Shown here in pieces: positions 1,929 through 24,379 of a stretch of DNA of 64,000 nt. The notes beneath the pieces are model-generated. The model was not told where the DNA came from and searched no databases. It saw only the letters and a program-made list of their open reading frames with translations. The DNA lies in NCBI GenBank assembly GCA_043803405.1, contig JAZDKB010000009.1, positions 192,001 through 256,000 of the forward strand, written 5' to 3'. The position numbers and the translations under genes are program-made. Numbering within the stretch: the first letter of the stretch is position 1; each line of letters starts with the position of its first letter. The DNA is from Spirochaetota bacterium (GTDB lineage: Bacteria; Spirochaetota; UBA4802; JAFGDQ01).

Positions 1929-3455
1929 ATGAATAATCATCAAATAAACGACAGCTATGTATCAATTGAATCCGCGCTTAAACGTGACGGATATTTTGTA
2001 TTCTCCCATGATGATATAAAACCTCACGAGAGTGAAAATAAACTGAGGCTGGTACATAACAGGCCGACCGGCGTTACTCATGCAAAAATTCCTGATGCCG
2101 GCGAAGCACCCGGAATAAAAATTCCTGAAAAACCTGCCAGCATAATACCCGAAGGCTATAAAAAAGGCGCCAAACCTGAACCGACGCACTATGTGGAAAC
2201 CGATTACAATATTTCCACTATTATCTCACATCTTCAGGAGCATATGCGCAGAATCTCCACGAATGTAATCGGCAGGGATGATATTATACAGCAGCTGATG
2301 TATGCTATTCTTACGGGCGAACACATGCTTCTTCTGTCGAGAACCGGAATGGCAAAATCTTACCTGGCTAATGAAGTATTTAACAGCTTCGAAAATGTAA
2401 GGATTTTTTCAGCTCAGGCAAGCAAGGACCAGACTCCTGATAATTACTTCGGCCCGTACAACATCGAAGAATTTAAGAAAGGCATAATACGGCATAACAT
2501 AAAAGGCTCAATAATAGAGGCAAACCTGGTTTTGCTCGATGAGTTCTTTGACGCAAGCGATGTTGTTTTAAGGTCGCTTTTATCTGTTCTTAATGAACGG
2601 AAATTCGTAAACGGATCGGAACAGATAGACGTAGCTATTCACACAGCTATTGCTACAGCAAATTACATGAGATTAAACGAAGTAACCGAAGCCATTCTCG
2701 ACCGTTTTCTTTACAAAGCAATAATACCGGAAGACGACGACATGTATAACAGGCTTCTGATAGATCAGGCATATAGCATTCGAAAGGGCAAACCTGAAGA
2801 ACCTATGCGAAAAATTCCATTTGATCAGATCGTCTTTCTGCATAATGTCATTAAAAACAACAACAAAAAAATCCAGATTAATTTCCCGGATTCGGTTAAG
2901 TTTTTAAAAAATGTTATAATAAACAAATTTATTTCCGAGATCAGAAAAAGCGAGCCTGAATTTTTCATAAGCCCCAGAAAACAGGCAAAGATAGCCGATT
3001 TTCTGAGAGCGACTGCAATATTAGACAACAGGTACGAAATTACCATGCAGGATTTAAGGAACATGTATATCGGCCTTGTTACGCTGAACAGGTATGTTTC
3101 TGTTAAACAGAAAGACAGACTGTTTACGGATATTTTTATAGATACTTATGAACAGACGATGTCCCATTTTAAAGCTACCAACGCTTTTCAGCAGATAGAT
3201 TTTTTACTTAATATTAAAAATATATTTCAGGTATTAAGAGATAATCCTGAAAAGAAGGAAACCCTTCATGAAGAGAAAGGACTTCTTCAGAGTCTAAAAA
3301 ATATTCTAGTTAAAATATTTCCTTTAAAAACAAAGGAAGAAGACGTACTAACAATTGAATCATTGAGAAAAAATATTGTTGAGCTCAATCCGTCGGTAGA
3401 AGAAGTCAGGGAACTTAAGCAGGGAATCCTCCGCGATTATAAGGATATTTACTAA
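1929..3455 (+). CDS. RavA/MoxR-type AAA+ ATPase
   Basis: VIGRDDII...EHMLLLSRTGMAKS (Walker A), LLDEFF (Walker B), LLSVLNER, AILDRF, ISPR. Confidence 0.85.
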   Translation: MNNHQINDSYVSIESALKRDGYFVFSHDDIKPHESENKLRLVHNRPTGVTHAKIPDAGEAPGIKIPEKPASIIPEGYKKGAKPEPTHYVETDYNISTIISHLQEHMRRISTNVIGRDDIIQQLMYAILTGEHMLLLSRTGMAKSYLANEVFNSFENVRIFSAQASKDQTPDNYFGPYNIEEFKKGIIRHNIKGSIIEANLVLLDEFFDASDVVLRSLLSVLNERKFVNGSEQIDVAIHTAIATANYMRLNEVTEAILDRFLYKAIIPEDDDMYNRLLIDQAYSIRKGKPEEPMRKIPFDQIVFLHNVIKNNNKKIQINFPDSVKFLKNVIINKFISEIRKSEPEFFISPRKQAKIADFLRATAILDNRYEITMQDLRNMYIGLVTLNRYVSVKQKDRLFTDIFIDTYEQTMSHFKATNAFQQIDFLLNIKNIFQVLRDNPEKKETLHEEKGLLQSLKNILVKIFPLKTKEEDVLTIESLRKNIVELNPSVEEVRELKQGILRDYKDIY

Positions 3456-3466
3456 GGTTAACCCAA

Positions 3467-5113
3467 TTGAATGAGAAAGGCTCTTCATTGACCGGCGGAC
3501 CGCAACCGCCGGATTTTTTTCAATACTGGGAATCATTAGGATATTTCGAGAATATCCGCTCCTTTTTGCCGCGCCAGTTCTTTATTCTGTTCGAGATAGC
3601 CCGGCTTATTGCCACCCCCGACTCGACTTTAAAAGCCAGAAACGCCATTGAAGACTTATTAAAAAAAGATAAAACGGAAGCATACGACAGGGATAAAAAC
3701 ATCTTAATAAACAGGATGGAAAGAAATGCCCCTATAAGCGATAAAATGGATATCCAGCATTACAAAACAATATATGACCTGAAGAAATCCATACCGAGAG
3801 AACTTGCGTGGGAAAAGGAGATTTTCGACATCAAGCTTTTAACAAGAACACTGTTCGTCCAGAAATTCTTCGAATCGGACTCGGACAAATTCAAGCCTAT
3901 ATCCCAGGCAAACGAGGAGGACGGACGGAGCAAAACAAAATTTGAACAGAAATTCTATCTTCTTCTCGACAGATCGCGTTCAATGGAAAAACGCATGAGA
4001 GCTTTTTATTCAAAAAGCATTGTTGTCGAGTTTTTCAGAAGAAAGATGGACAGCAATGCCAAGTTATATTACAGGGCATTTGACACCAAACCGGGAACTC
4101 TCGTAAAAATAGAAAAAAAGGAAGATTATCCGAATTTAATCGAAAAAGTAATTTTAACCACTACAGGCGGAGTAAGCACAAATATGCAGTCTGCCATTTT
4201 TCAGGCTATTGACGATATTTCTTTCGATAAAGACATGACGGATGCCGAAATACTGGTAGTTACGGACGGGCTTGTGCATGACCTTAACATACCTAAAATG
4301 AAGGAAAAGCTTAAAGGCATTAAATTGAATATCCTTAAAATTGGGCAGGATATGGCTGAACCTAACGGATATGAAATTAAGCGGGTGCTTGCGGAAGCGG
4401 GCCACGATTTTAATCCATTCTCAATAAGCCTTAAGGAAATAAAAAATAAATTCAATAACCCGGACAACGCCAGGAATATTTCCCAGGCGGAGCATGTTGT
4501 CTACAAGTACATGCTTGAATGCTCCGATAAAATAATCAGGGACATTAAAGAGATTTCCCATAAATTTATTGAAATTGAGGATATACAGTCCGCTTACACT
4601 GAATACATGAATAAGGATGCTTCTATATTTGTCGAAAAGGCCATTGATGAATTAATGAATATAAACATGGATGATAAGACTCTGGAAGAATTATCAATTA
4701 TATATAAAAAAGCATTTTTTTTAAGCCAGTACATAGAATTTCTCTTAAAAACCGATAAAATGAAAGATAATTCAAAGCTTATAGAAGCATCACAGGAGCT
4801 TTTTTCTTTAAAGCAGACAATGCTCGCAAATCCAAACCTGCTTGACATTATAATGAGAAATAAAGGATTTGAAGACGACAAGCAGGTTACCAAGGCAGCA
4901 AAAAAAGCAGCCAAAGAGAATATGAATGAACTGCTTAATCAAAAGAAAGCATTATCGAAAAACGACATTAAAAATGCAAAAATGATTTTCACCATGGGCG
5001 GGCATGGCGGAACCGGAAGCCCCGGACAATTATTATACGTTTTGTTTGTTAAGTTGTGGGAATGGATAAAATCAGTTTTTAGAAAAATATTCCGGAAAGA
5101 AAAAACGGAATAA
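3467..5113 (+). CDS. ViaA-like VWA-domain protein (partner of the MoxR ATPase)
   Basis: MIDAS LLDRSRSM, GGVST, VVTDG; 11 bp downstream of the AAA gene; TTG start. Confidence 0.8.
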   Translation: MNEKGSSLTGGPQPPDFFQYWESLGYFENIRSFLPRQFFILFEIARLIATPDSTLKARNAIEDLLKKDKTEAYDRDKNILINRMERNAPISDKMDIQHYKTIYDLKKSIPRELAWEKEIFDIKLLTRTLFVQKFFESDSDKFKPISQANEEDGRSKTKFEQKFYLLLDRSRSMEKRMRAFYSKSIVVEFFRRKMDSNAKLYYRAFDTKPGTLVKIEKKEDYPNLIEKVILTTTGGVSTNMQSAIFQAIDDISFDKDMTDAEILVVTDGLVHDLNIPKMKEKLKGIKLNILKIGQDMAEPNGYEIKRVLAEAGHDFNPFSISLKEIKNKFNNPDNARNISQAEHVVYKYMLECSDKIIRDIKEISHKFIEIEDIQSAYTEYMNKDASIFVEKAIDELMNINMDDKTLEELSIIYKKAFFLSQYIEFLLKTDKMKDNSKLIEASQELFSLKQTMLANPNLLDIIMRNKGFEDDKQVTKAAKKAAKENMNELLNQKKALSKNDIKNAKMIFTMGGHGGTGSPGQLLYVLFVKLWEWIKSVFRKIFRKEKTE

Positions 5114-8895: not shown

Positions 8896-12648
<3,753 letters not shown>

Positions 12649-12656
12649 TATAAATT

Positions 12657-14042
12657 TTAAAAATTTGCGCTTTTGGGTGTTCTTGGAAACGGAATTACAT
12701 CCCTGATGTTCTGCATACCTGTAATAAACTGCACAGTTCTCTCAAAACCAAGGCCGAATCCGGCGTGAGGAACGCTCCCGAACTTTCTTGTATCAAGGTA
12801 CCACCAGTACTCCTCCGGATTAAGCCCAAGCTCAACCATTCTGCTTTTCAGCACATCAAAATTATCCTCGCGCTCGCTGCCGCCTATTATCTCGCCTATA
12901 CCGGGAACAAGGACATCCATAGCCCTTACTGTTTTGTTGTCCGCATTTACTTTCATGTAAAATGCTTTAATTTGTTTAGGAAAATCGATTACAATTACAG
13001 GCTTCCTGAACTTCTTTTCCGTAAGATATCTTTCGTGCTCGGATTGCATGTCTATTCCCCACTCTACCGGGAACTCGAATTTCGCTCCCGATTTCGTTAA
13101 TATGTCTACCGCTTCCGTGTACGTAATTGTTGTAAACTCTGAATTTACTATGCTCTCCAGATTGGCAATTACGCCTTTCTGAATTCTTTGATCGAAGAAT
13201 TCCATATCCTCCATGCAGTTTTCAAGACAATACTTAAAGATATATTTAAGGAACTCTTCAGCCAGAACAATATCGTCTTCTAGTGTTGCAAAAGCCATCT
13301 CCGGTTCTACCATCCAGAACTCGGACAAATGCCTCGATGTATTCGAGTTCTCGGCGCGGAAGGTTGGCCCGAACGTGTACACATCGCCGAGCGCCGTTGC
13401 AAGGAGTTCGCCTTCCAGCTGCCCGCTTACCGTAAGCGCCGTTTTTTTTCCGAAGAAATCCTCTGAAAAGTCTATAGCTTCCTTGCCTGTTTCCGCGTTT
13501 TTTGCATCGAGCGTTGTTACCCGAAACATCTGGCCGGCGCCTTCACAGTCGTTCCCAGTGATTATCGGTGTGTGTATGTACAGGAATCCGTGCTCCTGAA
13601 AAAATTTATGAATGGCAAACGCTAGCGCGTTGCGCATCCTGAACACGGCGCCGAACGTGTTAGTGCGCGGCCGGAGGTGCGCGATCTCGCGCAGGAACTC
13701 AAACGAATGCCCCTTCTTCTGCAAAGGAAACGTTTCCGCATCCGCTTTTCCGTATATTTGAATATCGATCGCCTGCAGCTCGTACTTCTGGCCCTTGGCA
13801 GGAGAATCGATCAGTCTGCCTGTAATCGCGACGCTTGTTCCAGTAGTCAAATCTGCAAACAAAGCATACCCGGGAGTGTTCTCATCAGCCACTACCTGTA
13901 TGTTACGAAGGCACGACCCATCGTTTATCTCGACAAAGCACAGGCCCTTTGAAACACGCTTTGTCCTTACCCAGCCTTTGACAAGCACGTCAAATCCGGA
14001 CGTATCCGATTTAAGCAGATCGACTATTCTTGAACGCTTCAC
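12657..14042 (-). CDS. asnS: Asparagine--tRNA ligase
   Basis: [50 protein letters not shown] start. Confidence 0.97.
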
Positions 14043-14255
14043 ATTTTACCTCGAAAAATTCAAATTAATACTTAAGGAGCTATACTATTAACAAATAAAC
14101 TTAAATCGTCAAACAATTTTATTTTATATTTTTAGCCCAATATTTTATACTGGAATAAAATAGTTTGTTCTTACAACTCATCTTAAAAATAGCCAGTGCT
14201 CTAAAAATTTAATAGAAATAATATTGCATTCATTTTAAAACCTTGAATTTAACCA

Positions 14256-14302
14256 TTGACATTAATGATTAAATATATTATTATGTCATTATAATGACAT
14301 AA
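14256..14302 (+). promoter_or_regulatory. vapBC promoter with overlapping perfect 22-bp palindromic operator
   Basis: TTGACA(14256)-17 bp-TATTAT(14279); palindrome TTATGTCATTATAATGACATAA at 14281-14302. Confidence 0.8.
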
Positions 14303-14304
14303 AT

Positions 14305-14547
14305 ATGATGGATAAAATATATATGAACTATTTGCAATTTACGGATTTTCGGAATAAATCAAAAGAATATTTCGACAAAGTCGAACACGGCAGCTCTTAT
14401 ATAATTATCAGGAAAGGTAAACCAATTGCGAAAATCATGCCTTTTAATGAAACGATTACCGGCTGGAAGAGAGAAAATAAAAAAATTAAATTAAAAAGCA
14501 ACAAAACATCGCTGGAATATATTTTACAGGAAAGAAATGAAAAATGA
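14305..14547 (+). CDS. Phd/YefM-family antitoxin (start may be ATG14323)
   Basis: FTDFRNKSKEYFDKVEHG...IIIRKGKPIAKIMP; ATGA overlap with the toxin gene. Confidence 0.9.
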   Translation: MMDKIYMNYLQFTDFRNKSKEYFDKVEHGSSYIIIRKGKPIAKIMPFNETITGWKRENKKIKLKSNKTSLEYILQERNEK

Positions 14548-14972
14548 ATTTCTTTTTTGATACGTCCGCTTTAATAAAAAAATATATAATTGAAAACGGA
14601 TCGGACAAAGTTGATAAACTTCTTAATGAAGCGGAAAATGTATACATCTCGGCAATAACAGAAATTGAAACGTTCTCAACATTTAAAAGACTGCTAATTG
14701 AAAAAGCAATTGATAAGGAAGAATACGAAATATTAAAAAATGAATTTGAAACCGACTTCCAGTATTACAGCATTATAAACTTTGACAAAAGCATATCTTC
14801 GAATGCAAAATCTCTGATAGAAAAATATCAATTAAAAAGCCTTGATTCAATACAATTAGGGACTGCCCTATATCTAAAAGATGAAATTGACTTTTTTGTC
14901 GTATGCGATGAGAAACTAATAAAATCCGGAAAACAGGAAGGATTAAAAGTCATCGATCCAAATAAAAAATAA
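14544..14972 (+). CDS. vapC: VapC PIN-domain toxin
   Basis: FFDTSALIKKY..E, TEIE, LKSLDSIQLGTA, CDEKL. Confidence 0.9.
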   Translation: MNFFFDTSALIKKYIIENGSDKVDKLLNEAENVYISAITEIETFSTFKRLLIEKAIDKEEYEILKNEFETDFQYYSIINFDKSISSNAKSLIEKYQLKSLDSIQLGTALYLKDEIDFFVVCDEKLIKSGKQEGLKVIDPNKK

Positions 14973-15003
14973 TTTTCTCATATAGTATTATAATTCTTTA
15001 GAT

Positions 15004-15477
15004 TTATCTCGAAAAAAATCCTGTTAAAGCCGCTTTATCCAGTATGTGCGATTTAATTTCCTTCAATAAATTTCTTTCGGATGTATGTCCCGACAACTTT
15101 ACTTTTTCAATATCCAGAGCATAAACCGTCGCAACATATCCATGCTTTCCGCTTCCTTGGGGAGGCTGCGGCCCGCCGTAACCCTTTTGCCCGAATGAAT
15201 TTGTTAATTCTATTGAGCCTGCCGGCATGCCGGATTTATTCGAACAATTCTCTTCAACCGAAGTTATATTTGATGGAACATTAATAAATATCCAGTGTAC
15301 CCAGTTTGAAGCTATTGGATGAATATCAATAATTGCCAATGCGAAAGATTTAACTCCGCCCGGAATCCCGGACCAGCTAAACTGAGGGGAGATATTCTGC
15401 CCGCCTGGTACCCCGATGTTTGCATACTTTACCGGAACAGATTGATTATCCTGGTACGAGGATGATATCAGTTTCAT
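15004..15477 (-). CDS. YbhB/YbcL family PEBP (Raf kinase inhibitor-like) protein
   Basis: NISPQFSW, SFALAIIDIHP, WVHW, GYGGPQPPQGSGKHGY, YALD; GGAGG RBS before ATG15477. Confidence 0.9.
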   Translation of the reverse strand: MKLISSSYQDNQSVPVKYANIGVPGGQNISPQFSWSGIPGGVKSFALAIIDIHPIASNWVHWIFINVPSNITSVEENCSNKSGMPAGSIELTNSFGQKGYGGPQPPQGSGKHGYVATVYALDIEKVKLSGHTSERNLLKEIKSHILDKAALTGFFSR

Positions 15478-15493
15478 ACTGCCTCCTGAACTA

Positions 15494-16837
15494 TTAAGCC
15501 ATTTTTTTAACCACAACAAGTGTTATATCGTCAACCTGAGTGGACTGATAAGATTTAATGTCATTCATAATATTCTGCACAATATTATTCAGCGGCAGAT
15601 GATAATTCCTTTTAAATGACTCAATAATACGTTTCTCTCCGAACAGTTCATCGCTTGCGGATTTTGCTTCAGAAGCGCCGTCCGTGTAAAGCAAAATCAT
15701 GTCCCCTTTGCTGACAGGAATCTCCTGATCCGTTGTAAAATTTTCAATATCATCGGAGATTCCTATCCATGTTCCGTTTGTCGATATTGTTTCCGGCACC
15801 GGCTCGTTATTTCTTTGGATAATAATGTCCTGATGCAACCCCGCTGTTATTATTTTATCATCACACAATTTAATCACGGTTAATGTCATGTATCTTGTAC
15901 TGTCAAGACGCGCAAGATTCTTTCTTATTGCGGCATTTACGGAAACAAACAACCTTGACGGCATACATCCGGGTGTACGGTTCAGTATTGAAAAAATACT
16001 TGTCTGCGTCATCATCATAATGAGTCCCGAATCTACACCGTGACCGGATACATCGCCTATTGTGACCCACTTATCTCCGAGCTCAGTTTCGAAAAAGTCG
16101 TAATAATCGCCCCCTACTTCGTCAGCAGTTATCATAAGAGCCGATATCTGGTAATTACCGAGAGTGGTGTTTTTAGGAAGAATAGTAGTTTGTATTTTTT
16201 TTGCAAGCTCCATTTCACCCCATAGAGCATCTTTTGCCTCCCGCAACTGGGCCCTGAGATGAAATTCGTCTTTTATCAGCTTATGACGTACATAATTAAT
16301 ACTTACCGCAATTATAACAGTGCCGAACATAAAAAAAAGATTGTTGACGAGATTCGTTAATGCAAACTCCTGAGAGGCGATCACATTCAGTATCACATAT
16401 AAGGCGATCATCATAGTTCCATTTATTGCTGAATGTATAGGCTCCCATGGAAGAAGAAGGTTCACTCCTATTATCACGAGATTCATCCCAGCATAATAAC
16501 TCGAATCGAATCCGCCGAGATCGACGGTCATAATAGCTATTACTCCGCCTACTACAATGGTAACGAGATATCCATGAATGTACGACAACCTGCCGGGACT
16601 GGTTTTTTTTACCATAAAATACTGTAATACAGGGATGGCTGTAGCAACAATTCTGTAAAAAGCAAACCTGGGCAGAAGTTCTTCCGGCATTGTAAAAAAA
16701 TCCAAAATAAAAAAAACCGGAACCAGGGTAAAAGCAAGAGCAGTTAAAGTGATGGACCACTCGTGAATGATCGCGAACAAAAATTTCCTAAAAGGCAGAT
16801 CAACACTTGATATTTTATTTTCTGTTTTCCGGTTCAT
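15494..16837 (-). CDS. 6TM sensor (PhcS-like) fused to a SpoIIE/PP2C phosphatase (SiaA-like role)
   Basis: About 6 hydrophobic segments with LDFF..P..RF..YR, GGFDSSYYAG, NNLFF; coiled coil; VGGDYYD, GDVSGHG, LYTDG, DDIT. Confidence 0.85.
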   Translation of the reverse strand: MNRKTENKISSVDLPFRKFLFAIIHEWSITLTALAFTLVPVFFILDFFTMPEELLPRFAFYRIVATAIPVLQYFMVKKTSPGRLSYIHGYLVTIVVGGVIAIMTVDLGGFDSSYYAGMNLVIIGVNLLLPWEPIHSAINGTMMIALYVILNVIASQEFALTNLVNNLFFMFGTVIIAVSINYVRHKLIKDEFHLRAQLREAKDALWGEMELAKKIQTTILPKNTTLGNYQISALMITADEVGGDYYDFFETELGDKWVTIGDVSGHGVDSGLIMMMTQTSIFSILNRTPGCMPSRLFVSVNAAIRKNLARLDSTRYMTLTVIKLCDDKIITAGLHQDIIIQRNNEPVPETISTNGTWIGISDDIENFTTDQEIPVSKGDMILLYTDGASEAKSASDELFGEKRIIESFKRNYHLPLNNIVQNIMNDIKSYQSTQVDDITLVVVKKMA

Positions 16838-16848
16838 ACTACCGTCGC

Positions 16849-18240
16849 TTAAGCTTTTGTCGCAGTAAGAAACATCTGCGAGTTTGTATCTTCGAATATA
16901 ATATTTACATCTTTCGCATCCGTATCTTTTAACAACGACATAAATTCATCCTCTGTCCTGTAGTAAAGAACCCAGTCGTGCCAGTATTCCATGAACCACC
17001 GGCTCCTGTTCCTGAAATGGTAATTCCCGACAAATAATTTTCCACCGGGTTCCAGTAATGAATAAAGTTTTTCCGCGACCGCCTTTGCCACAGGAGGGGT
17101 CAGGTAATCGAACAGACCCATTGAATATATATAATTAAATTTACCCCATTCTTCAGAGAGATCCTTTGTCCGTAGCATAGTCCTGACTGAGTCCTTCAGG
17201 TAAGACACATGTATTTTGTAACCTATTTTTTTCTCAATATCGCGAATGATCTCCGAAGCATCCTTTATGGCTTCATCATCCTGGTCAAGAAGCGTGCAGT
17301 GAAATGATTTCACATCATCCTCGTTTTTAAAAATATCATTCAATTCAAATGCCGGGCCGCAGGCAACGGACATAAATCTGAAAACTCCATTTACTGTTTT
17401 ACGGAATTCATTGTTGACATCCCTGAGTACCTGAGGTATCAGCACGCGCCTGTTCCTTACAGCCTGTGCCGCGGGATGTTCAATTGAAATTTTATATAGA
17501 ATCATTGAAAAGGTATCTGCACCCCTGAACCCGTTTTCATATATCATTTCCATTGTTTCGGAATCGCCTACATAACCTCTCGGCTTCAGGTTGCTTCGCA
17601 GCATGAACGCGGAACAGGCAATAACATCCCATAACTGTTTTCTGAGATAAAAACCGTGTATTTCATGTTCTTCACGGGAATAATTCTTTATTATGGATTC
17701 AAGTTCGGAGATATAATCGGAAAAAAAGTCCATAAACTTTTTCCCTTCAGTGCCGATTATGGTAAGAAATACATGATCCCTGATAGATTTGATTTCTTTA
17801 GCAAGCGATTTGTCCAGTTCGTCAAAAAACTGTTTATAAACTTTCATGTCAAAAGAAACTCTGGATACATAATCTTTAAAAGCATCAGATACCCTCTCTT
17901 TCTGGGAAAGTATCAAATAGAGATCCTTTGAAAGCTTCTCAAGATTTAATAATTCCCTGCTCGCAAAGAGCACATCAAAATTGAAAACATCATTAAGGAA
18001 AATGAGTCTTCCATTTGTCCCTGAAGGATTAGTTTCCAGAATAAACTCGCAGCCTCCCAGATTTAAAGTCCTGTCATCAATTTGTAAGTCAAGGGAGGTA
18101 AATCTTTCTCCATCCCTGATATGCCAGCTGCTGTCAAACCTGATATATATTGAAAATCTGGAAGCATGGTGCAGCGTGCAGGGAATGGAGTACTTATCTG
18201 ATTTTAATGTCCCATTAAAACTGATGCCCTTATTTTCCAT
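16849..18240 (-). CDS. phcB: Class I SAM methyltransferase, PhcB-like (3-hydroxy fatty acid methyl ester signal synthase family)
   Basis: KPRGYVGD, AQAVRNRR, SVACGPA, LLDQD, IYSMGLFDYL, GNYH, EYWHDWVLYYR; 463 aa with an N-terminal beta-rich extension. Confidence 0.65.
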   Translation of the reverse strand: MENKGISFNGTLKSDKYSIPCTLHHASRFSIYIRFDSSWHIRDGERFTSLDLQIDDRTLNLGGCEFILETNPSGTNGRLIFLNDVFNFDVLFASRELLNLEKLSKDLYLILSQKERVSDAFKDYVSRVSFDMKVYKQFFDELDKSLAKEIKSIRDHVFLTIIGTEGKKFMDFFSDYISELESIIKNYSREEHEIHGFYLRKQLWDVIACSAFMLRSNLKPRGYVGDSETMEMIYENGFRGADTFSMILYKISIEHPAAQAVRNRRVLIPQVLRDVNNEFRKTVNGVFRFMSVACGPAFELNDIFKNEDDVKSFHCTLLDQDDEAIKDASEIIRDIEKKIGYKIHVSYLKDSVRTMLRTKDLSEEWGKFNYIYSMGLFDYLTPPVAKAVAEKLYSLLEPGGKLFVGNYHFRNRSRWFMEYWHDWVLYYRTEDEFMSLLKDTDAKDVNIIFEDTNSQMFLTATKA

Positions 18241-18241
18241 T

Positions 18242-18616
18242 TTATTCCATACCTTTAATTTGTATTCTGCGATCTTTGGTTTCGAATATTTTTAATGCGG
18301 AAAAACAAAGCTCCTGCCATTTTTTTGATTTTTTATAATTGATGGATATAGAACAGGTTTTATCCTTGGCATTTTCCAGAATTCTAATAAGCGGGGTAAT
18401 TGTTGAAGAATTCATATATTCAAGAGATTCGAAATTCATAACGACTCTTTTATTGAATTTACTGCTGTATTGCAGCGACTCAAGAAGGATGGGCGTAATA
18501 AAATGCCCCGGCTCCCTTTCTGTGCTTTTTCCACTGAACATTATCTCTATCGTTGAAGGTTTTTCCTGGACATCTATTGTCAGCAGATTACTTTTATGAG
18601 TTTCATTATTTTTCAT
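18242..18616 (-). CDS. SiaC/DUF1987-like STAS-type phosphoacceptor (anti-anti-sigma-like)
   Basis: FSGKSTEREPGHFITP, FESLEYMNSSTITPL (STAS/SiaC phospho-loop), KWQ; 124 aa. Confidence 0.7.
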   Translation of the reverse strand: MKNNETHKSNLLTIDVQEKPSTIEIMFSGKSTEREPGHFITPILLESLQYSSKFNKRVVMNFESLEYMNSSTITPLIRILENAKDKTCSISINYKKSKKWQELCFSALKIFETKDRRIQIKGME

Positions 18617-19120
18617 TTAATCTTTCCTCCTTCTGGACAGATGATAAACTGCTGATACAGATATTACATTGTCATCATTCACATAAAAATCAATCACAGA
18701 CTGCCCTTCGTAAGCAATACGCACTATTCCTAAACCGCTCATATTATCATTTAAAGGCTGAAGGGCAATATCCTTGATTTTTGCTATATAAGCTTCAAAA
18801 GGATTCTGAAATCCGCGAACCCATTGGACAATCCTGTCCAGTCTTTTGAAATGCATATCGTCCTGTTCCCTGACAGGGCTTTTTACTTCCACTGTAATAA
18901 TCCGTTCAGCCGGAGTAACCGAAGCATAAATGTCGGGGCATTTATCTGTAAAGCATCCATACTTAACGGCATTCTCGACAAGTTCGCTAATGGTCATTAT
19001 TATAGCATCTCTTATGACATCATTGCATCCTTTCGATTTTAGAAATTCATCGGCACTGTTCCTGATTATTTCAATATTTTCCCATACAGGTTTAATTTTA
19101 ACTTCAAAGATATCATTCAT
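18617..19120 (-). CDS. SiaB/RsbW-like GHKL Ser/Thr kinase (anti-sigma-factor type)
   Basis: SELVENAVKYG (N-box), SGLGIVRIAYEG (G2); 167 aa; GGAG RBS. Confidence 0.8.
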   Translation of the reverse strand: MNDIFEVKIKPVWENIEIIRNSADEFLKSKGCNDVIRDAIIMTISELVENAVKYGCFTDKCPDIYASVTPAERIITVEVKSPVREQDDMHFKRLDRIVQWVRGFQNPFEAYIAKIKDIALQPLNDNMSGLGIVRIAYEGQSVIDFYVNDDNVISVSAVYHLSRRRKD

Positions 19121-19177
19121 TTGCTGCTCCTGAAATATCAGTATTATGATAATTCATAAACCTAGCAAAATAGAACA

Positions 19178-19296
19178 CAGGCATACGCCTGCGACAGACC
19201 TTCGGTATACATGCTTCATTATGTTTTGAGGCGTTATTGGTGGGTTCTTAGATCTAAAGGCTTTTATCCCTGACACAAATGTCCGGGCATAACGCC
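19178..19296 (-). ncRNA. Candidate structured 5' leader (cis-regulatory RNA) of the kinase-STAS-methyltransferase operon
   Basis: GC-rich island in an AT-rich intergenic region; GGCGTTAT/ATAACGCC outer stem (19230-37/19289-96); internal hairpin CCCgGACA-TTTG-TGTCaGGG; downstream CAGGC-GTAT-GCCTG hairpin. Confidence 0.4.
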
Positions 19297-19336
19297 ATTG
19301 AAATACAAGTATAGCAGGTTACAGAAACAATAATAT

Positions 19337-19365
19337 ATTATACATTCCATATCTTACTTAATCAA
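19337..19365 (-). promoter_or_regulatory. Sigma70-type promoter of the minus-strand signalling operon
   Basis: TTGATT-17 bp-TATAAT on the minus strand, implying a ~210-nt 5' UTR. Confidence 0.65.
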
Positions 19366-19420
19366 GAAAAAAAATTAAATATCGCGGCAAAAACAAATTA
19401 GCTATTTATAAAAAAATTGT

Positions 19421-19462
19421 TTGTATTTTCTGACAGTTGTCACTATACTAATATAGTGACAA
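19421..19462 (+). promoter_or_regulatory. Promoter of the GGDEF-EAL gene with an overlapping 26-bp inverted-repeat operator
   Basis: TTGTAT(19421)-17 bp-TATACT(19444); IR TTGTCACTATA-ctaa-TATAGTGACAA at 19437-19462. Confidence 0.65.
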
Positions 19463-19600
19463 ATTAAACCTGCAATGTTTTATTTTTTTTCCGCAAGCAC
19501 TTAGAACAAATTATTATTTTAGTACCCACATTCAGCAAAAAGACTTATAAAATAATTTCACCTGCAAATTGAATATTTTAATATTTTAAAGAGGTTAACC

Positions 19601-21712
19601 TTGATCAATTATTCCCAAATGAGGATAGCTGTTAAAACAACTTTAGCAGCTGTGATTGTTATGTTTATTCCCTGCACTGCAGTGTCCGTCTTCCTGTACC
19701 GTTCGCGTATTTTAAGTATTAATGAATTTATAACCGGCATAATTATTACTTTTATTCTCGGCACAATAGCTTTGTACCTCCTGCTAAAAAGAACCATCCT
19801 GAAGCCTGTCGAAGAATTGAGAAACAAAACACTGGAGATTGGGAATACAAACAGTTTTAATTTAAGGCTGCCCGTAAAGGCAAAGAGCAATGATGAAATC
19901 TCGGCCCTGGCATCGGCATTCAATTCACTTCTTAATAAGATGTCCGAAACAAATTACGACCTGAGAAAAAAAATTGAAGACCAGAGCAGCATGCTCGAAA
20001 GAAGTATAAGAGAGAGGGTATCGTCATTAATGACAATGAACCAGGTACTCCTGTTGATGCAGGAAGTCTTTGAACATTCACTTGAAGGAATATACGTTAC
20101 CGATATAAAAGGAAAAATTATTAAAGTGAACCCGGCTTTCTCTGCTATTACCGGGTATTCGGAAGAAGAAGTAATCGGAAAAAATCCTAAAATTTTTCAT
20201 TCAGGTCTTCAGGAGACAAATTTCTATAAAGAAATGTGGCGTGATCTTGTCTCAAACGGGCGGTGGTCCGGAGAGATAACTAACCGCCATAAAGAAGGAA
20301 ATACTTATACTGAATGGTTATCAATCAGCGCCATACGTAATTCTCAGGAAGAAACAACAAATTACGTGGGAGTCTTTCATGATATCAGTGATCTGAAAAA
20401 AAAGGAAGAAATCATAGAACATCAGGCCTTCTATGATTCGCTGACCGGCCTCCCGAACAAGCTGCTTCTGAAAGACAGGATTGATAAAGGAATTGTAAAT
20501 GCCACAAGGGCCGGGAACCATCTGGGATTGATATTTTTTGATCTGGATAATTTTAAACAGATTAATGATACTATGGGGCATGCAGCGGGAGATGTTCTGC
20601 TTATAGAGGTCGCCGAACGTGTTAATTCCGTCACAAGAAGTTCCGACACCCTGTCAAGACTCGGGGGCGATGAATTCATGGTACTTGTTGAAAATATTGA
20701 AGATGCAAAACCGGTTGTAAACCTTGCGCAAAGAATAATTAGCTCTTTTCAGAATCCGTTCAATATTATTAACAACAAGTATCATGTAAGCGCAAGTATA
20801 GGGATTGCGTTTTTTCCGGAAGATGGCAAGGAATCGGAAACCCTTATCAGGAACGCGGATACGGCATTGTATAACGCAAAAGATGAATCGAAAGGAAGCA
20901 TTATGCTGTTTACATCTTCTTTCAATGAAAACGTGGCACGGAAACTCAAAATAGAAAATGATTTAAGGACCGCTATCAAGGAGAACAATTTCGAGCTTCA
21001 CTATCAGCCGAAACTCGATTTTAAGACTGGAAAAATTATTGGAGTTGAAGGCCTTGTCAGGATGAAAGAGAAGCAAAACCTGGTAAACCCTGTTGAATTT
21101 ATTCCTCTGGCAGAAGAAACAGGGCTCATTATTGAGATTGACAGGATTGTAATGGACATTGGGTTCAATGAAATCAGCATTCTTTTTGAGGAACTGGGAA
21201 TTTCGCTTAACCTTGCTCTGAATTGCTCCACAAAGGCGTTATACCTGAAAACTTTTCCGGATGCACTCTTCTGGTCACTGGAGAATTACCTGGTTAAACC
21301 GGAAAATTTTGAACTTGAAGTAACAGAAACTACAATCATGAAAAATTATAATGAATCTCTGCAAATGCTATTTCATCTCAGGAATATGGGTATTAAAATT
21401 TCTCTGGACGATTTCGGCACAGGTTATTCATCACTTGCACAGATGAGAAACCTGCCGATAAATTGTATTAAGATTGACAGAAGCTTTATATGCGACCTGG
21501 AAAAAAACAGGAATAATGCTTTTATTCTTGAGTTAATTATTTCCCTTTCACGAAAGATCGGCATTACGACTGTTGCCGAAGGAATTGAGAACGAAAATCA
21601 GTTTAACTTTTTAAAAGAAGCCGGATGTGATATTGCACAGGGATATTACATCAGCAAACCTCTTCCTTTGGATGAACTGAAGAAGTTCCTAACTTTACCG
21701 GCCCGGGGATAG
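19601..21712 (+). CDS. Membrane HAMP-PAS-GGDEF-EAL diguanylate cyclase/phosphodiesterase
   Basis: 2 TM, HAMP (DEISALASAFN), PAS, YDSLTGLPN, RSSD I-site + GGDEF, EGLVR, DDFGTGYSS, QGYY; TTG start with GAGG. Confidence 0.95.
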   Translation: MINYSQMRIAVKTTLAAVIVMFIPCTAVSVFLYRSRILSINEFITGIIITFILGTIALYLLLKRTILKPVEELRNKTLEIGNTNSFNLRLPVKAKSNDEISALASAFNSLLNKMSETNYDLRKKIEDQSSMLERSIRERVSSLMTMNQVLLLMQEVFEHSLEGIYVTDIKGKIIKVNPAFSAITGYSEEEVIGKNPKIFHSGLQETNFYKEMWRDLVSNGRWSGEITNRHKEGNTYTEWLSISAIRNSQEETTNYVGVFHDISDLKKKEEIIEHQAFYDSLTGLPNKLLLKDRIDKGIVNATRAGNHLGLIFFDLDNFKQINDTMGHAAGDVLLIEVAERVNSVTRSSDTLSRLGGDEFMVLVENIEDAKPVVNLAQRIISSFQNPFNIINNKYHVSASIGIAFFPEDGKESETLIRNADTALYNAKDESKGSIMLFTSSFNENVARKLKIENDLRTAIKENNFELHYQPKLDFKTGKIIGVEGLVRMKEKQNLVNPVEFIPLAEETGLIIEIDRIVMDIGFNEISILFEELGISLNLALNCSTKALYLKTFPDALFWSLENYLVKPENFELEVTETTIMKNYNESLQMLFHLRNMGIKISLDDFGTGYSSLAQMRNLPINCIKIDRSFICDLEKNRNNAFILELIISLSRKIGITTVAEGIENENQFNFLKEAGCDIAQGYYISKPLPLDELKKFLTLPARG

Positions 21713-21716
21713 TAAT

Positions 21717-23135
21717 TTATGCTATATCAATACAGATTATGCATATATCGTCATTGAACAAATCATTGCCGTGAAAAAGTATCAGTTCATTATAAAGTGT
21801 ATTTATAAAATCCTTACTATCCAGGTCTTTCAGTTTTAAAAAATGATCGTCTATTTCATTACCGAATTCTAATTTTGGATCATGGTTGTTTCTCGCTTCA
21901 ACAAGGCCGTCTGTGAACAAAAGCAGTTTGCTGTTTCCCGGCAGAACTGCCTTGCTGTTTGTATAGTCCAGACCTGACTGGGTAAGATCCTGACTATTCA
22001 TAACACTTAGAGGAATACTTTTTGCCGTATTCAATTTCACTATTTTATCTTTTAAAATTATCGACGGGGGAAGGTGACCGGCGTTTGAATAAATGAGAGA
22101 ATGGCTGATATTATCATAAATTCCGTAAAATGCAGTTACATAATTGTCATTAGTCTGGATCTTAAGTACCTGGTTCAGGTGATGGAGCAGTATTGCGGGA
22201 TTTGAGGAAATTTTTCTTGATTCAAGTATGCTGCTCTTAATCATGGATGTTATCAGCGCTGCCGGAACACCGTGCCCGGATACATCGCTTAAAAAAATTC
22301 CGACTTTGTTTTTATCCTTGAATTCAATAAAATCCAGTAAATCTCCCCCGACAGCTTCCATCGGTTTATAGAATGAATGTATATAGTGATTGGGACTTTT
22401 CCTTGGAATAAAATTCTGCTGAATAACGCGTGCCATTTCAAGTTCCTTATTCATAATGTTTATACGGTCTTTCAACTGGTTGCGTTCATTCTGCAATTCT
22501 TCTCGTTTATCTGCCAGTTCCCTTCTCTGGATAAAATTTTTACGTGTATAATGCTCAATAAGATAGCAGGCAAACATTCCAATTATGTTTGATGATATAA
22601 AGAAGAAATTATTGTTAATAAAAATGCTGACTAATCTGCTGTTTTCAAGCATACCTTGAAAAAATACCGCGGTTATTTCATACGCGAAAACAATAATCCA
22701 GCCCGAGGCAGCTGCGTAAGTGAACCTTAATTTTACAAATGTATAGCTCCACATAAGAACAAGCATCAGTCCGGCATAATAGAAAAGTCCGCTCTCCTTT
22801 TCCACGGCAATACCTATCATTGCAACTATGCCGAATCCCGCGATAAGAGACAATGCAGAGAGTATAATTTGCATATATTTTTTGAATATATTTAAATAGG
22901 AAACTCCAAAAACTACAAACAGGGAGGGAACAACAATTGCAAAACGTATAAACCATATCTTTGATTTTGTAAGAGGAGCGATAAGGCTGTCGAGTACTCC
23001 AAATGCAGAATAAAGAATTATTCCAAGAATCAGCGCAATTCTTACGGTAAAGATCGATTTTTCGAAATAATCTTCAATAAAAAGAGCTTCAATTGCAGGG
23101 TCAGGGAACTTTAATTTTGACAGGAATAATTTCAA
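21717..23135 (-). CDS. Second 6TM sensor-PP2C/SpoIIE phosphatase
   Basis: LDSLIAP..IWFIRF, YYAGLMLV, NNFFF; VGGDLLD, DVSGHG, NAGH, FTDG, DDIC; TTG start with GAGGGG. Confidence 0.9.
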   Translation of the reverse strand: MKLFLSKLKFPDPAIEALFIEDYFEKSIFTVRIALILGIILYSAFGVLDSLIAPLTKSKIWFIRFAIVVPSLFVVFGVSYLNIFKKYMQIILSALSLIAGFGIVAMIGIAVEKESGLFYYAGLMLVLMWSYTFVKLRFTYAAASGWIIVFAYEITAVFFQGMLENSRLVSIFINNNFFFISSNIIGMFACYLIEHYTRKNFIQRRELADKREELQNERNQLKDRINIMNKELEMARVIQQNFIPRKSPNHYIHSFYKPMEAVGGDLLDFIEFKDKNKVGIFLSDVSGHGVPAALITSMIKSSILESRKISSNPAILLHHLNQVLKIQTNDNYVTAFYGIYDNISHSLIYSNAGHLPPSIILKDKIVKLNTAKSIPLSVMNSQDLTQSGLDYTNSKAVLPGNSKLLLFTDGLVEARNNHDPKLEFGNEIDDHFLKLKDLDSKDFINTLYNELILFHGNDLFNDDICIICIDIA

Positions 23136-23302
23136 AGTGAATATCCCCTCAAAAATTTAACCTATCCACATCTCCTTGTATGTCCTTATGGCTTTTAATT
23201 ATAATTCAATATTGTAATAATGTCAAGATATGTAATTAATATAATTCTTATATGCCGATAATCAAGAAAAGATAATGCAGATCATATATAGAAAGGCCAG
23301 TA

Positions 23303-24379
23303 ATGAAAGATATTAAAGCAGCTCTTATCGGTTGCGGGAGAATTGGCTTCCTTCTCGAGAACGATCCTTTGCGCAACAAGCCCTGCACTCACTTCGGAGG
23401 CGCAAAGGCAGCCGGAATAAAAATAAAGTATGCCTGCGATATAAACGAAGAAAGACTATTCAGTTTTGCTGAGAAAGCACAGCTTCAAAAAACAAATCTA
23501 TACACATACTACCGCGAATTACTCCTTAAAGAGCGGCCGCAACTGGTTATCATTGCAACATGGACGAACTCCCATACAGAGATCGGCATACTTGCTGCGA
23601 AGAACGGCGCAAGAACGATCATTTGCGAAAAACCGGTCGCTGCCAATCTAAAGGATGCCGAAGCGCTCCTCGCCGAATGCAAAAAACGCAAAGTTAATCT
23701 CATCATTAATCACGAAAGGCGATACGATGCAAGGTACCACGCAGTAAAAAAATTGCTGACAGAAAACAGGATAGGCGAAGTAAAAACAGTTTACGCGTCC
23801 GTTCTTTCGGCCGGAGCCGGCAGCGCGGATATCACCCTGGGCGGAGGGCCGCTGCTTCACGACGGCACACACATGATAGACATTATCAGATATTTCTTCG
23901 GTGACATCCTCTGGGTAAGAGGCGAAATGCAGAAAAAAAAGCCGTCCGGATTTGAAAACAGGGCTGCGGCATGGCTAAGAAGCAAAACAGGCGTGGACAT
24001 CTTTCTCGAAGCAGGCGGGTCAAGAAAATACTTTGTATTTGAGCTTCAGATATCGGGCACAGAAGGCAAAATAGTAATCGGCAATGGATACGAGAACCTT
24101 TATCTTAACAATAAATCAAAATATTATACAGGCTTCAGAGATCTTACGGAAAAACCATTCCCGCATATAAAAGGAATGAATTATTTCAAACAGGAATATC
24201 TCGAAGCAAATAATTTATTATCGGATAAAAAAATAAATATTTCCTCAAGCGGTTATGACGGGTATAAAGCGCTGGAGACAATCCATGCCATTTATCTCTC
24301 ATCTCATTTAAAAAGCAATAAAATAGATCTGCCGATAAAACCAGGGCAAATAGATCTAAAAGAGATATTTAAGATGTAA
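23303..24379 (+). CDS. Gfo/Idh/MocA family oxidoreductase
   Basis: LIGCGRIG, CEKP, NHERRY, GGGPLLHDGTHMID. Confidence 0.9.
   Translation: MKDIKAALIGCGRIGFLLENDPLRNKPCTHFGGAKAAGIKIKYACDINEERLFSFAEKAQLQKTNLYTYYRELLLKERPQLVIIATWTNSHTEIGILAAKNGARTIICEKPVAANLKDAEALLAECKKRKVNLIINHERRYDARYHAVKKLLTENRIGEVKTVYASVLSAGAGSADITLGGGPLLHDGTHMIDIIRYFFGDILWVRGEMQKKKPSGFENRAAAWLRSKTGVDIFLEAGGSRKYFVFELQISGTEGKIVIGNGYENLYLNNKSKYYTGFRDLTEKPFPHIKGMNYFKQEYLEANNLLSDKKINISSSGYDGYKALETIHAIYLSSHLKSNKIDLPIKPGQIDLKEIFKM

Follow-up and report, generated by a model that had tools for sequence, protein, structure and literature searches.

Could a bacterium read a self-made, lipid-like signal through a phosphatase instead of a histidine kinase? 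The question is raised by a compact gene cluster in a 64,000-nucleotide stretch of DNA from a Spirochaetota bacterium (positions 192,001 to 256,000 of contig JAZDKB010000009.1, assembly GCA_043803405.1; the whole stretch is called the window here, and positions are counted from its first letter). A sequence-only reading of the window had proposed that the methyltransferase in this cluster is a PhcB-like signal synthase, and that the neighbouring six-transmembrane-helix (6TM) PP2C phosphatase is its receptor and passes the signal to a SiaABC-like partner switch. Our comparisons suggest that the methyltransferase and the 6TM domain constitute a deep, recurring gene pair with variable output, of which the window cassette would be the PP2C/partner-switch version.

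The cluster consists of five minus-strand open reading frames (ORFs) at 15004-19120, in the order kinase, STAS/SiaC-like protein, methyltransferase, 6TM-PP2C phosphatase and YbhB/PEBP protein, and the ORF list with its translations bears out the genes, coordinates, gaps and motifs given in the sequence-only reading. The kinase gene (18617..19120) encodes a GHKL serine-kinase-like protein of 167 aa, of the SpoIIAB/RsbW kind and nearest the slr1658 superfamily by family models and profiles. Its stop codon is followed immediately, with a gap of 0 bp, by the start codon of the gene for the predicted STAS-fold/SiaC-family phospho-switch protein (18242..18616; 124 aa), whose own stop codon lies 1 bp from the start of the methyltransferase gene (16849..18240; 463 aa). 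The phosphatase gene (15494..16837; 447 aa) follows after 11 bp, and a further 16 bp separate it from the PEBP gene (15004..15477) if the ATG at 15477 is taken as the start of the latter; the longest PEBP ORF (15004-15519), whose first codon is a TTG, would overlap the PP2C gene. Among the motifs, YMNSS occurs in the small protein as part of LEYMNSSTITP, and the methyltransferase translation contains KPRGYVGD, ACGP and GLFDYL.

We scanned one genome per species, which yielded 218 loci with close relatives of the methyltransferase, and fetched the best 80, to which all counts out of 80 refer. Using profiles of the four proteins, we found the kinase, STAS, methyltransferase and PP2C genes in the same order and on the same strand in 71 of the 80, with a kinase gene upstream of the methyltransferase in 74. 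The record titles, from which the phylum counts were taken, name eight phyla: Spirochaetota (26 loci, including Leptospira weilii, L. alstonii and L. borgpetersenii), Thermodesulfobacteriota (20), Myxococcota (16, some titled only 'Deltaproteobacteria bacterium'), Fidelibacterota (4), Pseudomonadota (3), Calditrichota (3), Bacteroidota (1) and Nitrospirota (1), with six titles giving no phylum. The survey thus upheld the expectation that these genes are co-conserved, and a restriction of the arrangement to this genome or to spirochaetes was not borne out, since by record titles it occurs in many phyla. That unrelated regulatory genes were packed here by chance and form no functional unit is contradicted by this shared order across phyla and has, in our estimation, a negligible probability; the cassette is almost certainly a real and widespread unit. 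A PEBP relative was found in 0 of the 80 loci, so the PEBP gene (PBP/YbhB, 118 bits), which had been counted with the other four, is a local neighbour outside the conserved cassette, possibly co-transcribed here, and the conserved unit comprises four genes. The methyltransferase is single-copy in the window's genome.

Three of the nine exceptions among the 80 loci involve contig ends, with L025 and L069 ending just after the methyltransferase and L049 beginning just before it. Three Anaeromyxobacteraceae loci (L053, L054 and L077) have a kinase-methyltransferase-PP2C arrangement; in L054 and L077 the STAS gene lies on the opposite strand, after the phosphatase gene, and no STAS gene was found at the L053 locus. 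The remaining exceptions are L047, where the methyltransferase stands alone, the variant L059, and L038, where kinase-like and methyltransferase parts share one ORF (L038:7665-9059, plus strand) and the STAS gene and the methyltransferase N-domain are missing, either a natural fusion/deletion or an assembly error. In one Spirochaetes metagenome-assembled genome, contig MIBJ01000008.1 holds the complete cassette twice (L014 and L021), at a spacing of about 14 kb. In an uncultured Leptospira sp. the cassette phosphatase is followed by a second, 612-aa transmembrane (TM) PP2C protein (L062:5130-6968, plus strand) whose sensor scores 207 bits against the cassette profile, which looks like a tandem receptor duplication.

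What the methyltransferase itself might make depends on its family. Pfam and NCBIfam return class I S-adenosylmethionine (SAM) methyltransferase domains, all below cut-offs. Relatives number 1477 at E <= 0.001 in a word-indexed search and 3982 clusters at 50% identity in an exhaustive one, and many bear the JGI name 'extracellular factor (EF) 3-hydroxypalmitic acid methyl ester biosynthesis protein', which is the KEGG phcB label. The AlphaFold2 model (predicted local distance difference test score, pLDDT, 90.9) divides the protein into a beta-barrel at residues 7-81 (17998..18222), a helical domain at residues 88-282 (17395..17979) with the KPRGYxGD and RNR motifs common to PhcB-type proteins, and a Rossmann-fold SAM-binding domain at residues 287-461 (16858..17382). 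Foldseek matched the whole model to generic small-molecule methyltransferases and the uncharacterised 3ocj; a phmmer search against the PDB gave nothing useful, and a protein atlas provided family-level leads only, namely PilZ/methyltransferase clusters and a 469-aa 'Regulatory protein' cluster in Pseudomonadota.

Proteins of Paraburkholderia, Cupriavidus and Massilia that carry the JGI phcB label served as PhcB-type proxies, in place of Ralstonia PhcB itself. The proxy operon, located on a Paraburkholderia graminis plasmid, encodes a 468-aa methyltransferase, a 445-aa kinase and two response regulators, mirroring the phcBSRQ operon as described in an excerpt of PMC7694676. The proxy methyltransferase is 66-70% identical to Cupriavidus, Massilia, Pseudoduganella and Janthinobacterium methyltransferases of the same label; in a 400-genome sample of the class that holds locus L060, only 6 genomes had a methyltransferase match (one genome, G252, was left unscored). 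Pairwise, the window methyltransferase is 27% identical to the proxy over 315 residues (E 9e-37), and hhalign joined the cassette alignment (A1) with the Burkholderiaceae PhcB-type alignment (A5) over 444 columns at 100% probability, E 1.5e-46 and 23% identity. The PhcB-type clade keeps 26 of the 60 residues that are invariant in the cassette clade, all within positions 195-457 and including KPxGYxGD, RNR and GLFDYL. In a FastTree phylogeny of 126 rows, run without bootstrap, midpoint-rooted and with four long-branch warnings, the cassette methyltransferases form one supported group and the 7 PhcB-type rows another across the tree, the latter nested among PilZ-bearing proteins of 594-613 aa. 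Given this end-to-end alignment on the one hand and the separate clades on the other, the window protein is best regarded, from its sequence, as a PhcB-superfamily member of the same build and not as a PhcB orthologue, so that of the proposed PhcB-like synthase the superfamily homology stands and the orthology falls.

More distant relatives of this methyltransferase also occur in rhizobia, where a 345-aa protein of about 25-29% identity that comprises just the helical and Rossmann parts is encoded divergently from an EAL-domain protein gene on a Rhizobium acidisoli plasmid (L136) and on Sinorhizobium meliloti pSymB (L137), with matches in 122 Rhizobium and 4 Sinorhizobium plasmid records.

The second half of the putative pair is the N-terminal sensor domain of the phosphatase (residues 1-215; 16193..16837), in which a crude Kyte-Doolittle scan, as opposed to a dedicated predictor, marks six hydrophobic segments within residues 29-183. 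No Pfam model matched the 6TM sensor part in the proteins scanned. A BLASTP comparison of the domain with its counterpart in the Paraburkholderia PhcS-like kinase gives 24% identity across 188 residues (E 8e-6), and a profile of 64 cassette TM domains finds the same kinase at E 6.9e-11 and 38 bits, from which we class the sensor as PhcS type. A TM-PAS-kinase of the same sensor family follows the phosphatase gene in 34 of the 80 cassette loci.

The cassette and the Phc arrangement therefore share both halves: the methyltransferases have the same build (N-domain, helical domain with KPxGYxGD and RNR, Rossmann domain at about 288-460), and each is followed by a gene for a membrane protein whose sensor is of the same 6TM family, in the cassette across the 11-bp gap. 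They differ in that the cassette enzyme lies in another clade at 23-27% identity to the Burkholderiaceae proxies, in that its sensor is fused to PP2C rather than to a histidine kinase and no response regulator is present in the cassette, and in that transduction is predicted to pass through the STAS protein and the serine kinase instead of PhcR/PhcQ.

We then looked at whether the two halves stay together when the rest of the cassette is absent. Among 301 sampled Myxococcota genomes, 109 had a methyltransferase-family match at E <= 1e-15 (a tally that includes one unpublished genome), and 40 non-cassette places were fetched, 25 of them at 155 bits or more and 15 weaker. A TM-domain gene lay directly downstream on the same strand at 20 of the 25 stronger places, with scores of 46-113 bits; in one of the other five such a gene was 1.3 kb away, and in four there was none. 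Beside the 15 weaker relatives we found none (0/15). Pfam assigned diverse outputs to the 20 paired sensors: 15 are hybrids in which a kinase is followed by REC and a second kinase-like domain, three are kinase-REC-SpoIIE proteins, one is an adenylate/guanylate cyclase and one is truncated. The 15 hybrids recall PhcS together with PhcR, a kinase and a response-regulator hybrid in the wording of PMC7694676. A gammaproteobacterial methyltransferase relative is likewise followed by a TM-kinase (L084). The occurrence of this pairing across clades with different outputs indicates an old pair with interchangeable outputs, which favors the idea that a self-made signal is read by the phosphatase. It is also the best available support for the earlier suggestion of a cognate receptor whose output has been swapped.

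In three of the Myxococcota sensors, a single polypeptide joins the 6TM domain to HisKA, HATPase, REC and SpoIIE and is encoded beside the methyltransferase relative (L112:5821-8454, L113:7027-9705 and L105:5999-8650, all on the plus strand), and these chains look like intermediates between the Phc-type and partner-switch versions. In L105, a REC-Ser/Thr-kinase gene comes next. Directly after the sensor-kinase-REC-PP2C gene in L112 and L113 there are weak STAS-profile matches (17-19 bits); Pfam did not recognise the weak STAS-profile matches that follow the kinase-REC-PP2C genes of L112 and L105.

The remaining cassette proteins raise the question of which kind of switch they would form. The small protein scores 28.6 bits with Pfam SiaC (PF09345; cut-off 24.5) and reaches 31.2 of the 100 bits required by the slr1659 superfamily model; among 40 orthologues, 36 match Pfam SiaC and 15 match STAS. 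Both S70 and S71 of YMNSS are invariant in these orthologues, S70 presumably occupying the position of the phosphorylated serine in SpoIIAA-type proteins. Against the PDB, the small-protein profile best matched the STAS anti-sigma antagonist TM1442 (E 2e-5), with YMNSS aligned to YMDSA, and retrieved no SiaC chain at E <= 1. For the kinase, HATPase_c_2 scored 21 bits, below its cut-off, and the slr1658 superfamily 29.2 bits against a cut-off of 100. In NCBIfam, slr1658 models matched all 40 kinase orthologues (best E 2e-14), SpoIIAB 16 and the SiaB family 9; the SiaB model NF038262 did not match the window kinase and was weak in the 9 of 40 orthologues (best E 2.3e-4). Residues E46, E49, N50, K53, Y54, G55, D95, S128, G131 and R134 are invariant across these orthologues, and the best solved match to the kinase profile in the PDB was SpoIIAB (E 0.004), with no SiaB chain at E <= 1. 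The catalytic part of the phosphatase (residues 257-444; 15506..16069) is a SpoIIE/PP2C domain at 105 bits, whose GGDYYD, GDVSGHG and DG motifs are conserved at 95% or more in 64 rows; the SiaA model NF038263 reached 48.1 bits against a cut-off of 700, with only the PP2C part aligned.

With the PP2C metal motifs, the STAS-antagonist serine and the kinase N and G boxes all present, the cassette contains an RsbU/V/W-type partner-switch set, and its parts look functional, on the assumption that the residues in the PP2C, STAS and kinase parts have the catalytic roles usual in such proteins. As in the RsbU/RsbV/RsbW and SpoIIE/SpoIIAA/SpoIIAB systems, there is a small protein matching TM1442 with the conserved serine aligned, a kinase matching SpoIIAB and a SpoIIE-family phosphatase; unlike them, the cassette has no sigma factor gene, takes its input from a 6TM sensor and has a methyltransferase embedded in it. 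SiaABCD of Pseudomonas aeruginosa (PP2C SiaA, kinase SiaB, DUF1987 protein SiaC and cyclase SiaD) likewise places a membrane PP2C, a SiaC-family protein and a small GHKL kinase in one operon, but with a different gene order and a cyclase where the cassette has the methyltransferase, and we found no diguanylate cyclase or GGDEF gene inside the cassette operon. The Synechocystis Slr1658/Slr1659 pair gives the best NCBIfam matches for the cassette kinase and small protein, although these scores of 29 and 31 bits fall far below the cut-off of 100. According to excerpts of PMC6525291 and PMC7555055, slr1658 disruption alters transcription, with pgr5 up about 1000-fold, via an unknown chain. Collectively, these comparisons point to a partner switch of the general RsbU/V/W kind, nearest the cyanobacterial slr1658/slr1659 pair and 'Sia-like' only loosely. 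Of the SiaABC-like assignment, membership of the small protein in the SiaC family held, and the likeness of the phosphatase to SiaA, of either small partner to a solved SiaC or SiaB chain, and of the operon to one with a cyclase did not; within 18242-19120, the small protein agrees with its Sia counterpart, and the window kinase goes unmatched by the SiaB model that 9 of 40 orthologues match weakly.

The methyltransferase carries a regulatory-looking module of its own. A separate model of residues 1-105 (pLDDT 77.6) was compared with the PDB by Foldseek, and the top 22 structures listed were PilZ domains or PilZ-bearing proteins, except for one nuclear magnetic resonance domain of unknown family; these matches are weak, with E 0.009-0.13 and query-normalised TM-scores of 0.45-0.64. 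Alg44, BcsA, PP4397, YcgR, MotI, VCA0042, PA4608 and MapZ are among the best matches overall, for which E ranges from 0.009 to 0.3. Pfam PilZ was found at E <= 0.001 in 13 of 28 wider relatives, at or before the N-domain position, and in 0 of 40 cassette-clade proteins at E <= 0.05. The cassette clade shares its helical and methyltransferase core with the uncharacterised PilZ-methyltransferase fusions but has lost their recognisable PilZ signature. PilZ domains bind cyclic di-GMP (c-di-GMP) through RxxxR and D/NxSxxG motifs, neither of which appears in our 25-row N-domain alignment. We read the domain, from its modelled fold, as a degenerate PilZ-type barrel, more likely to serve docking or regulation than to be a c-di-GMP site.

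These features bear on a c-di-GMP-gated methyltransferase, in which the N-terminal barrel would bind c-di-GMP made or degraded by a divergently encoded HAMP-PAS-GGDEF-EAL protein and the partner switch would be a parallel input. The PilZ-like fold, the recognisable PilZ domains of relatives and the position of the GGDEF-EAL gene (480 bp upstream on the opposite strand) would fit such gating, which we nevertheless consider quite improbable, given that the clade lacks both binding motifs and any Pfam PilZ match, and that the GGDEF-EAL neighbour is present in only 7 of the 80 loci, all among the closest relatives. Still less probable, in our view, is that the enzyme acts like CheR, methylating carboxyl groups of a signalling protein (the sensor, the STAS protein or some other) and so adding adaptation to the phosphorylation switch. 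This reading draws on weak matches to the CheR SAM-binding domain in 34 of 40 clade members (best E 6.7e-7) and on a weak resemblance of the N-domain model to MapZ, a PilZ protein solved with CheR1 (5xly_B, E 0.26). The resemblance to CheR, however, spans only some 45 residues within the SAM-binding region; compared as a whole, the model best fits small-molecule methyltransferases and 3ocj, and the only family members tied to a characterised system, those of the PhcB kind, make a small ester according to PMC7694676.

How, then, might the four proteins work together? We propose that the PhcB-superfamily methyltransferase would methylate a small molecule to give a hydrophobic product, most probably a methyl ester of the fatty-acid type, and that the PhcS-type six-helix membrane domain of the neighbouring phosphatase would detect it. 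Detection would alter PP2C activity, and with the GHKL serine kinase working in opposition, this would determine how far the STAS/SiaC-like protein is phosphorylated; as in the sequence-only reading, the signal would be passed on as dephosphorylation. In this way, a partner switch would replace the His-Asp relay of the Ralstonia Phc system, and its candidate targets would be the methyltransferase's own PilZ-like domain, giving feedback, or an unlinked factor. From gene order and homology, we judge it an even call whether the 6TM phosphatase senses such a self-made product.

The main rival reading reverses the logic, with the methyltransferase as the regulated output of the switch, in the role of SiaD. 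The phosphatase would then sense an unrelated envelope or nutrient cue, and the unphosphorylated STAS/SiaC-like protein or the kinase would bind the PilZ-like N-domain and activate lipid or metabolite methylation, with nothing sensed back. The regulatory-looking PilZ-fold N-domain lends itself to this arrangement, as does the STAS gene ending 1 bp before the methyltransferase gene; the Pfam PilZ domains in 13 of 28 wider relatives suggest an enzyme family commonly under post-translational control, and DUF1987 proteins are proposed to modulate adjacent proteins in the eLife 2021 SiaC-SiaD paper (PMC8457831). Set against this, the methyltransferase-6TM pair persists with no adjacent STAS or kinase gene in the PhcB-type operon and in 17 of the 20 Myxococcota pairs, and the weak STAS-profile matches after the sensor-kinase-REC-PP2C genes of L112 and L113 would put the switch downstream of the sensor. 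A complex prediction for the methyltransferase and the STAS/SiaC-like protein scored 0.00 in a run without controls and has no bearing either way. As the sole logic of the cassette, regulated output seems to us unlikely; it could coexist with sensing of a self-made product as a feedback loop.

A second protein with a closely similar sensor is encoded on another contig of the window's genome. This 709-aa protein (L129:4740-6869, minus strand; G000 contig C19:160000-172000) has Hpt and HATPase domains fused to a sensor domain that is 49% identical to that of the phosphatase over 190 ungapped residues (E 9e-59). It is followed by genes for a CheX-like protein (L129:4276-4743, minus strand), a single-domain response regulator (3911-4267, minus strand) and a fatty-acid desaturase (2674-3690, minus strand). 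It may provide the same signal with another output, one that leans towards lipid metabolism, and if the phosphatase sensor reads the methyltransferase product, then this genome would read it through two outputs. A thioesterase-like gene lies upstream of it (L129:7809-8285, minus strand).

Several observations weigh against a self-made signal read by the phosphatase. No close copy of the second receptor was found in any of the five related genomes searched (0/5); we thus rejected it as a general feature and regard it as lineage-specific. The PhcS-like TM domain scores no higher (38 bits) than paralogues such as that of the window's second PP2C (36.5 bits), indicating that the sensor family is broad and that its PhcS-like member is not specially close, and the ligand of this family need not be the methyltransferase product. 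The comparison with PhcB depends on Burkholderiaceae proxies that share the JGI phcB label, with no bona fide Ralstonia PhcB among them; the cassette enzyme falls outside the PhcB clade, with deep nodes leading to PilZ-bearing methyltransferases separating the two. In addition, the cassette encodes no obvious output, and co-inherited neighbours need not be synthase and receptor, as the sensor could instead control the methyltransferase. We consider true quorum sensing, in which the response would depend on cell density, doubtful. A broader proposal can be made tentatively: that Phc-type signalling would be one branch of an old, multi-phylum family of lipid-ester synthases and 6TM receptors with interchangeable outputs (histidine kinase, kinase-REC-PP2C, PP2C with a partner switch, or cyclase), and that the window cassette, which pathogenic Leptospira, Desulfobacterales, Myxococcota and other groups also carry, would be a genuine autoinducer circuit acting through Ser/Thr dephosphorylation of the STAS protein.

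The cassette may be a Phc-type synthase-receptor pair with a partner-switch output, and possibly a means, so far undescribed, by which cells read a lipid-like signal of their own making. In the full-text literature, whose coverage excludes most subscription journals, we found no description of the cassette or of PhcB/PhcS relatives outside Burkholderiaceae, which agrees with the initial impression that the hybrid is undescribed; passages of PMC5995829 report the phc system intact only in Cupriavidus and Ralstonia. If the pair works like Phc, spirochaetes (Leptospira pathogens among them), sulfate reducers, myxobacteria and a number of candidate phyla would contain an unnoticed family of self-made lipid-like signals and receptors. 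Such a circuit, if real, would be to our knowledge the first autoinducer-type receptor to report through a PP2C/STAS/kinase switch and not through a two-component relay or LuxR-type regulator. It would represent a new major class of quorum-sensing wiring and would give the 6TM sensor domain and many PilZ-methyltransferase fusions a testable function.

As for expression of the cassette, a consensus scan placed a promoter-like site, TTGATT-17-TATAAT, at 19337..19365 on the minus strand, about 215 nt upstream of the kinase start; the region contains 13 such sites against 17.6 expected from shuffles, making this weak evidence. Within the roughly 215-nt leader between this site and the kinase start is a terminator-like hairpin with a T-run (19176-19193, minus strand), which could be an attenuator or a chance match. 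No Rfam family matched in a scan of 14000-24000, so there is no known riboswitch in the 5' leader.

Beyond the leader, the divergent HAMP-PAS-GGDEF-EAL gene (19601-21712, plus strand) begins 480 bp from the kinase gene and is followed by the gene for the second membrane PP2C (21717-23135, minus strand), with a TM domain from the sensor family of the cassette phosphatase. On the other side, between the PEBP gene and asnS, two small overlapping ORFs (14305-14547, 80 aa, and 14544-14972, 142 aa, both on the plus strand) resemble an antitoxin and a PIN toxin by eye. Upstream of asnS, a gene at 8896-12648 (plus strand) encodes a 1250-aa hybrid sensor kinase with no evident link to the cassette, in which PAS domains, the core of a kinase, a pair of receiver domains and an Hpt-like end can be made out by eye.

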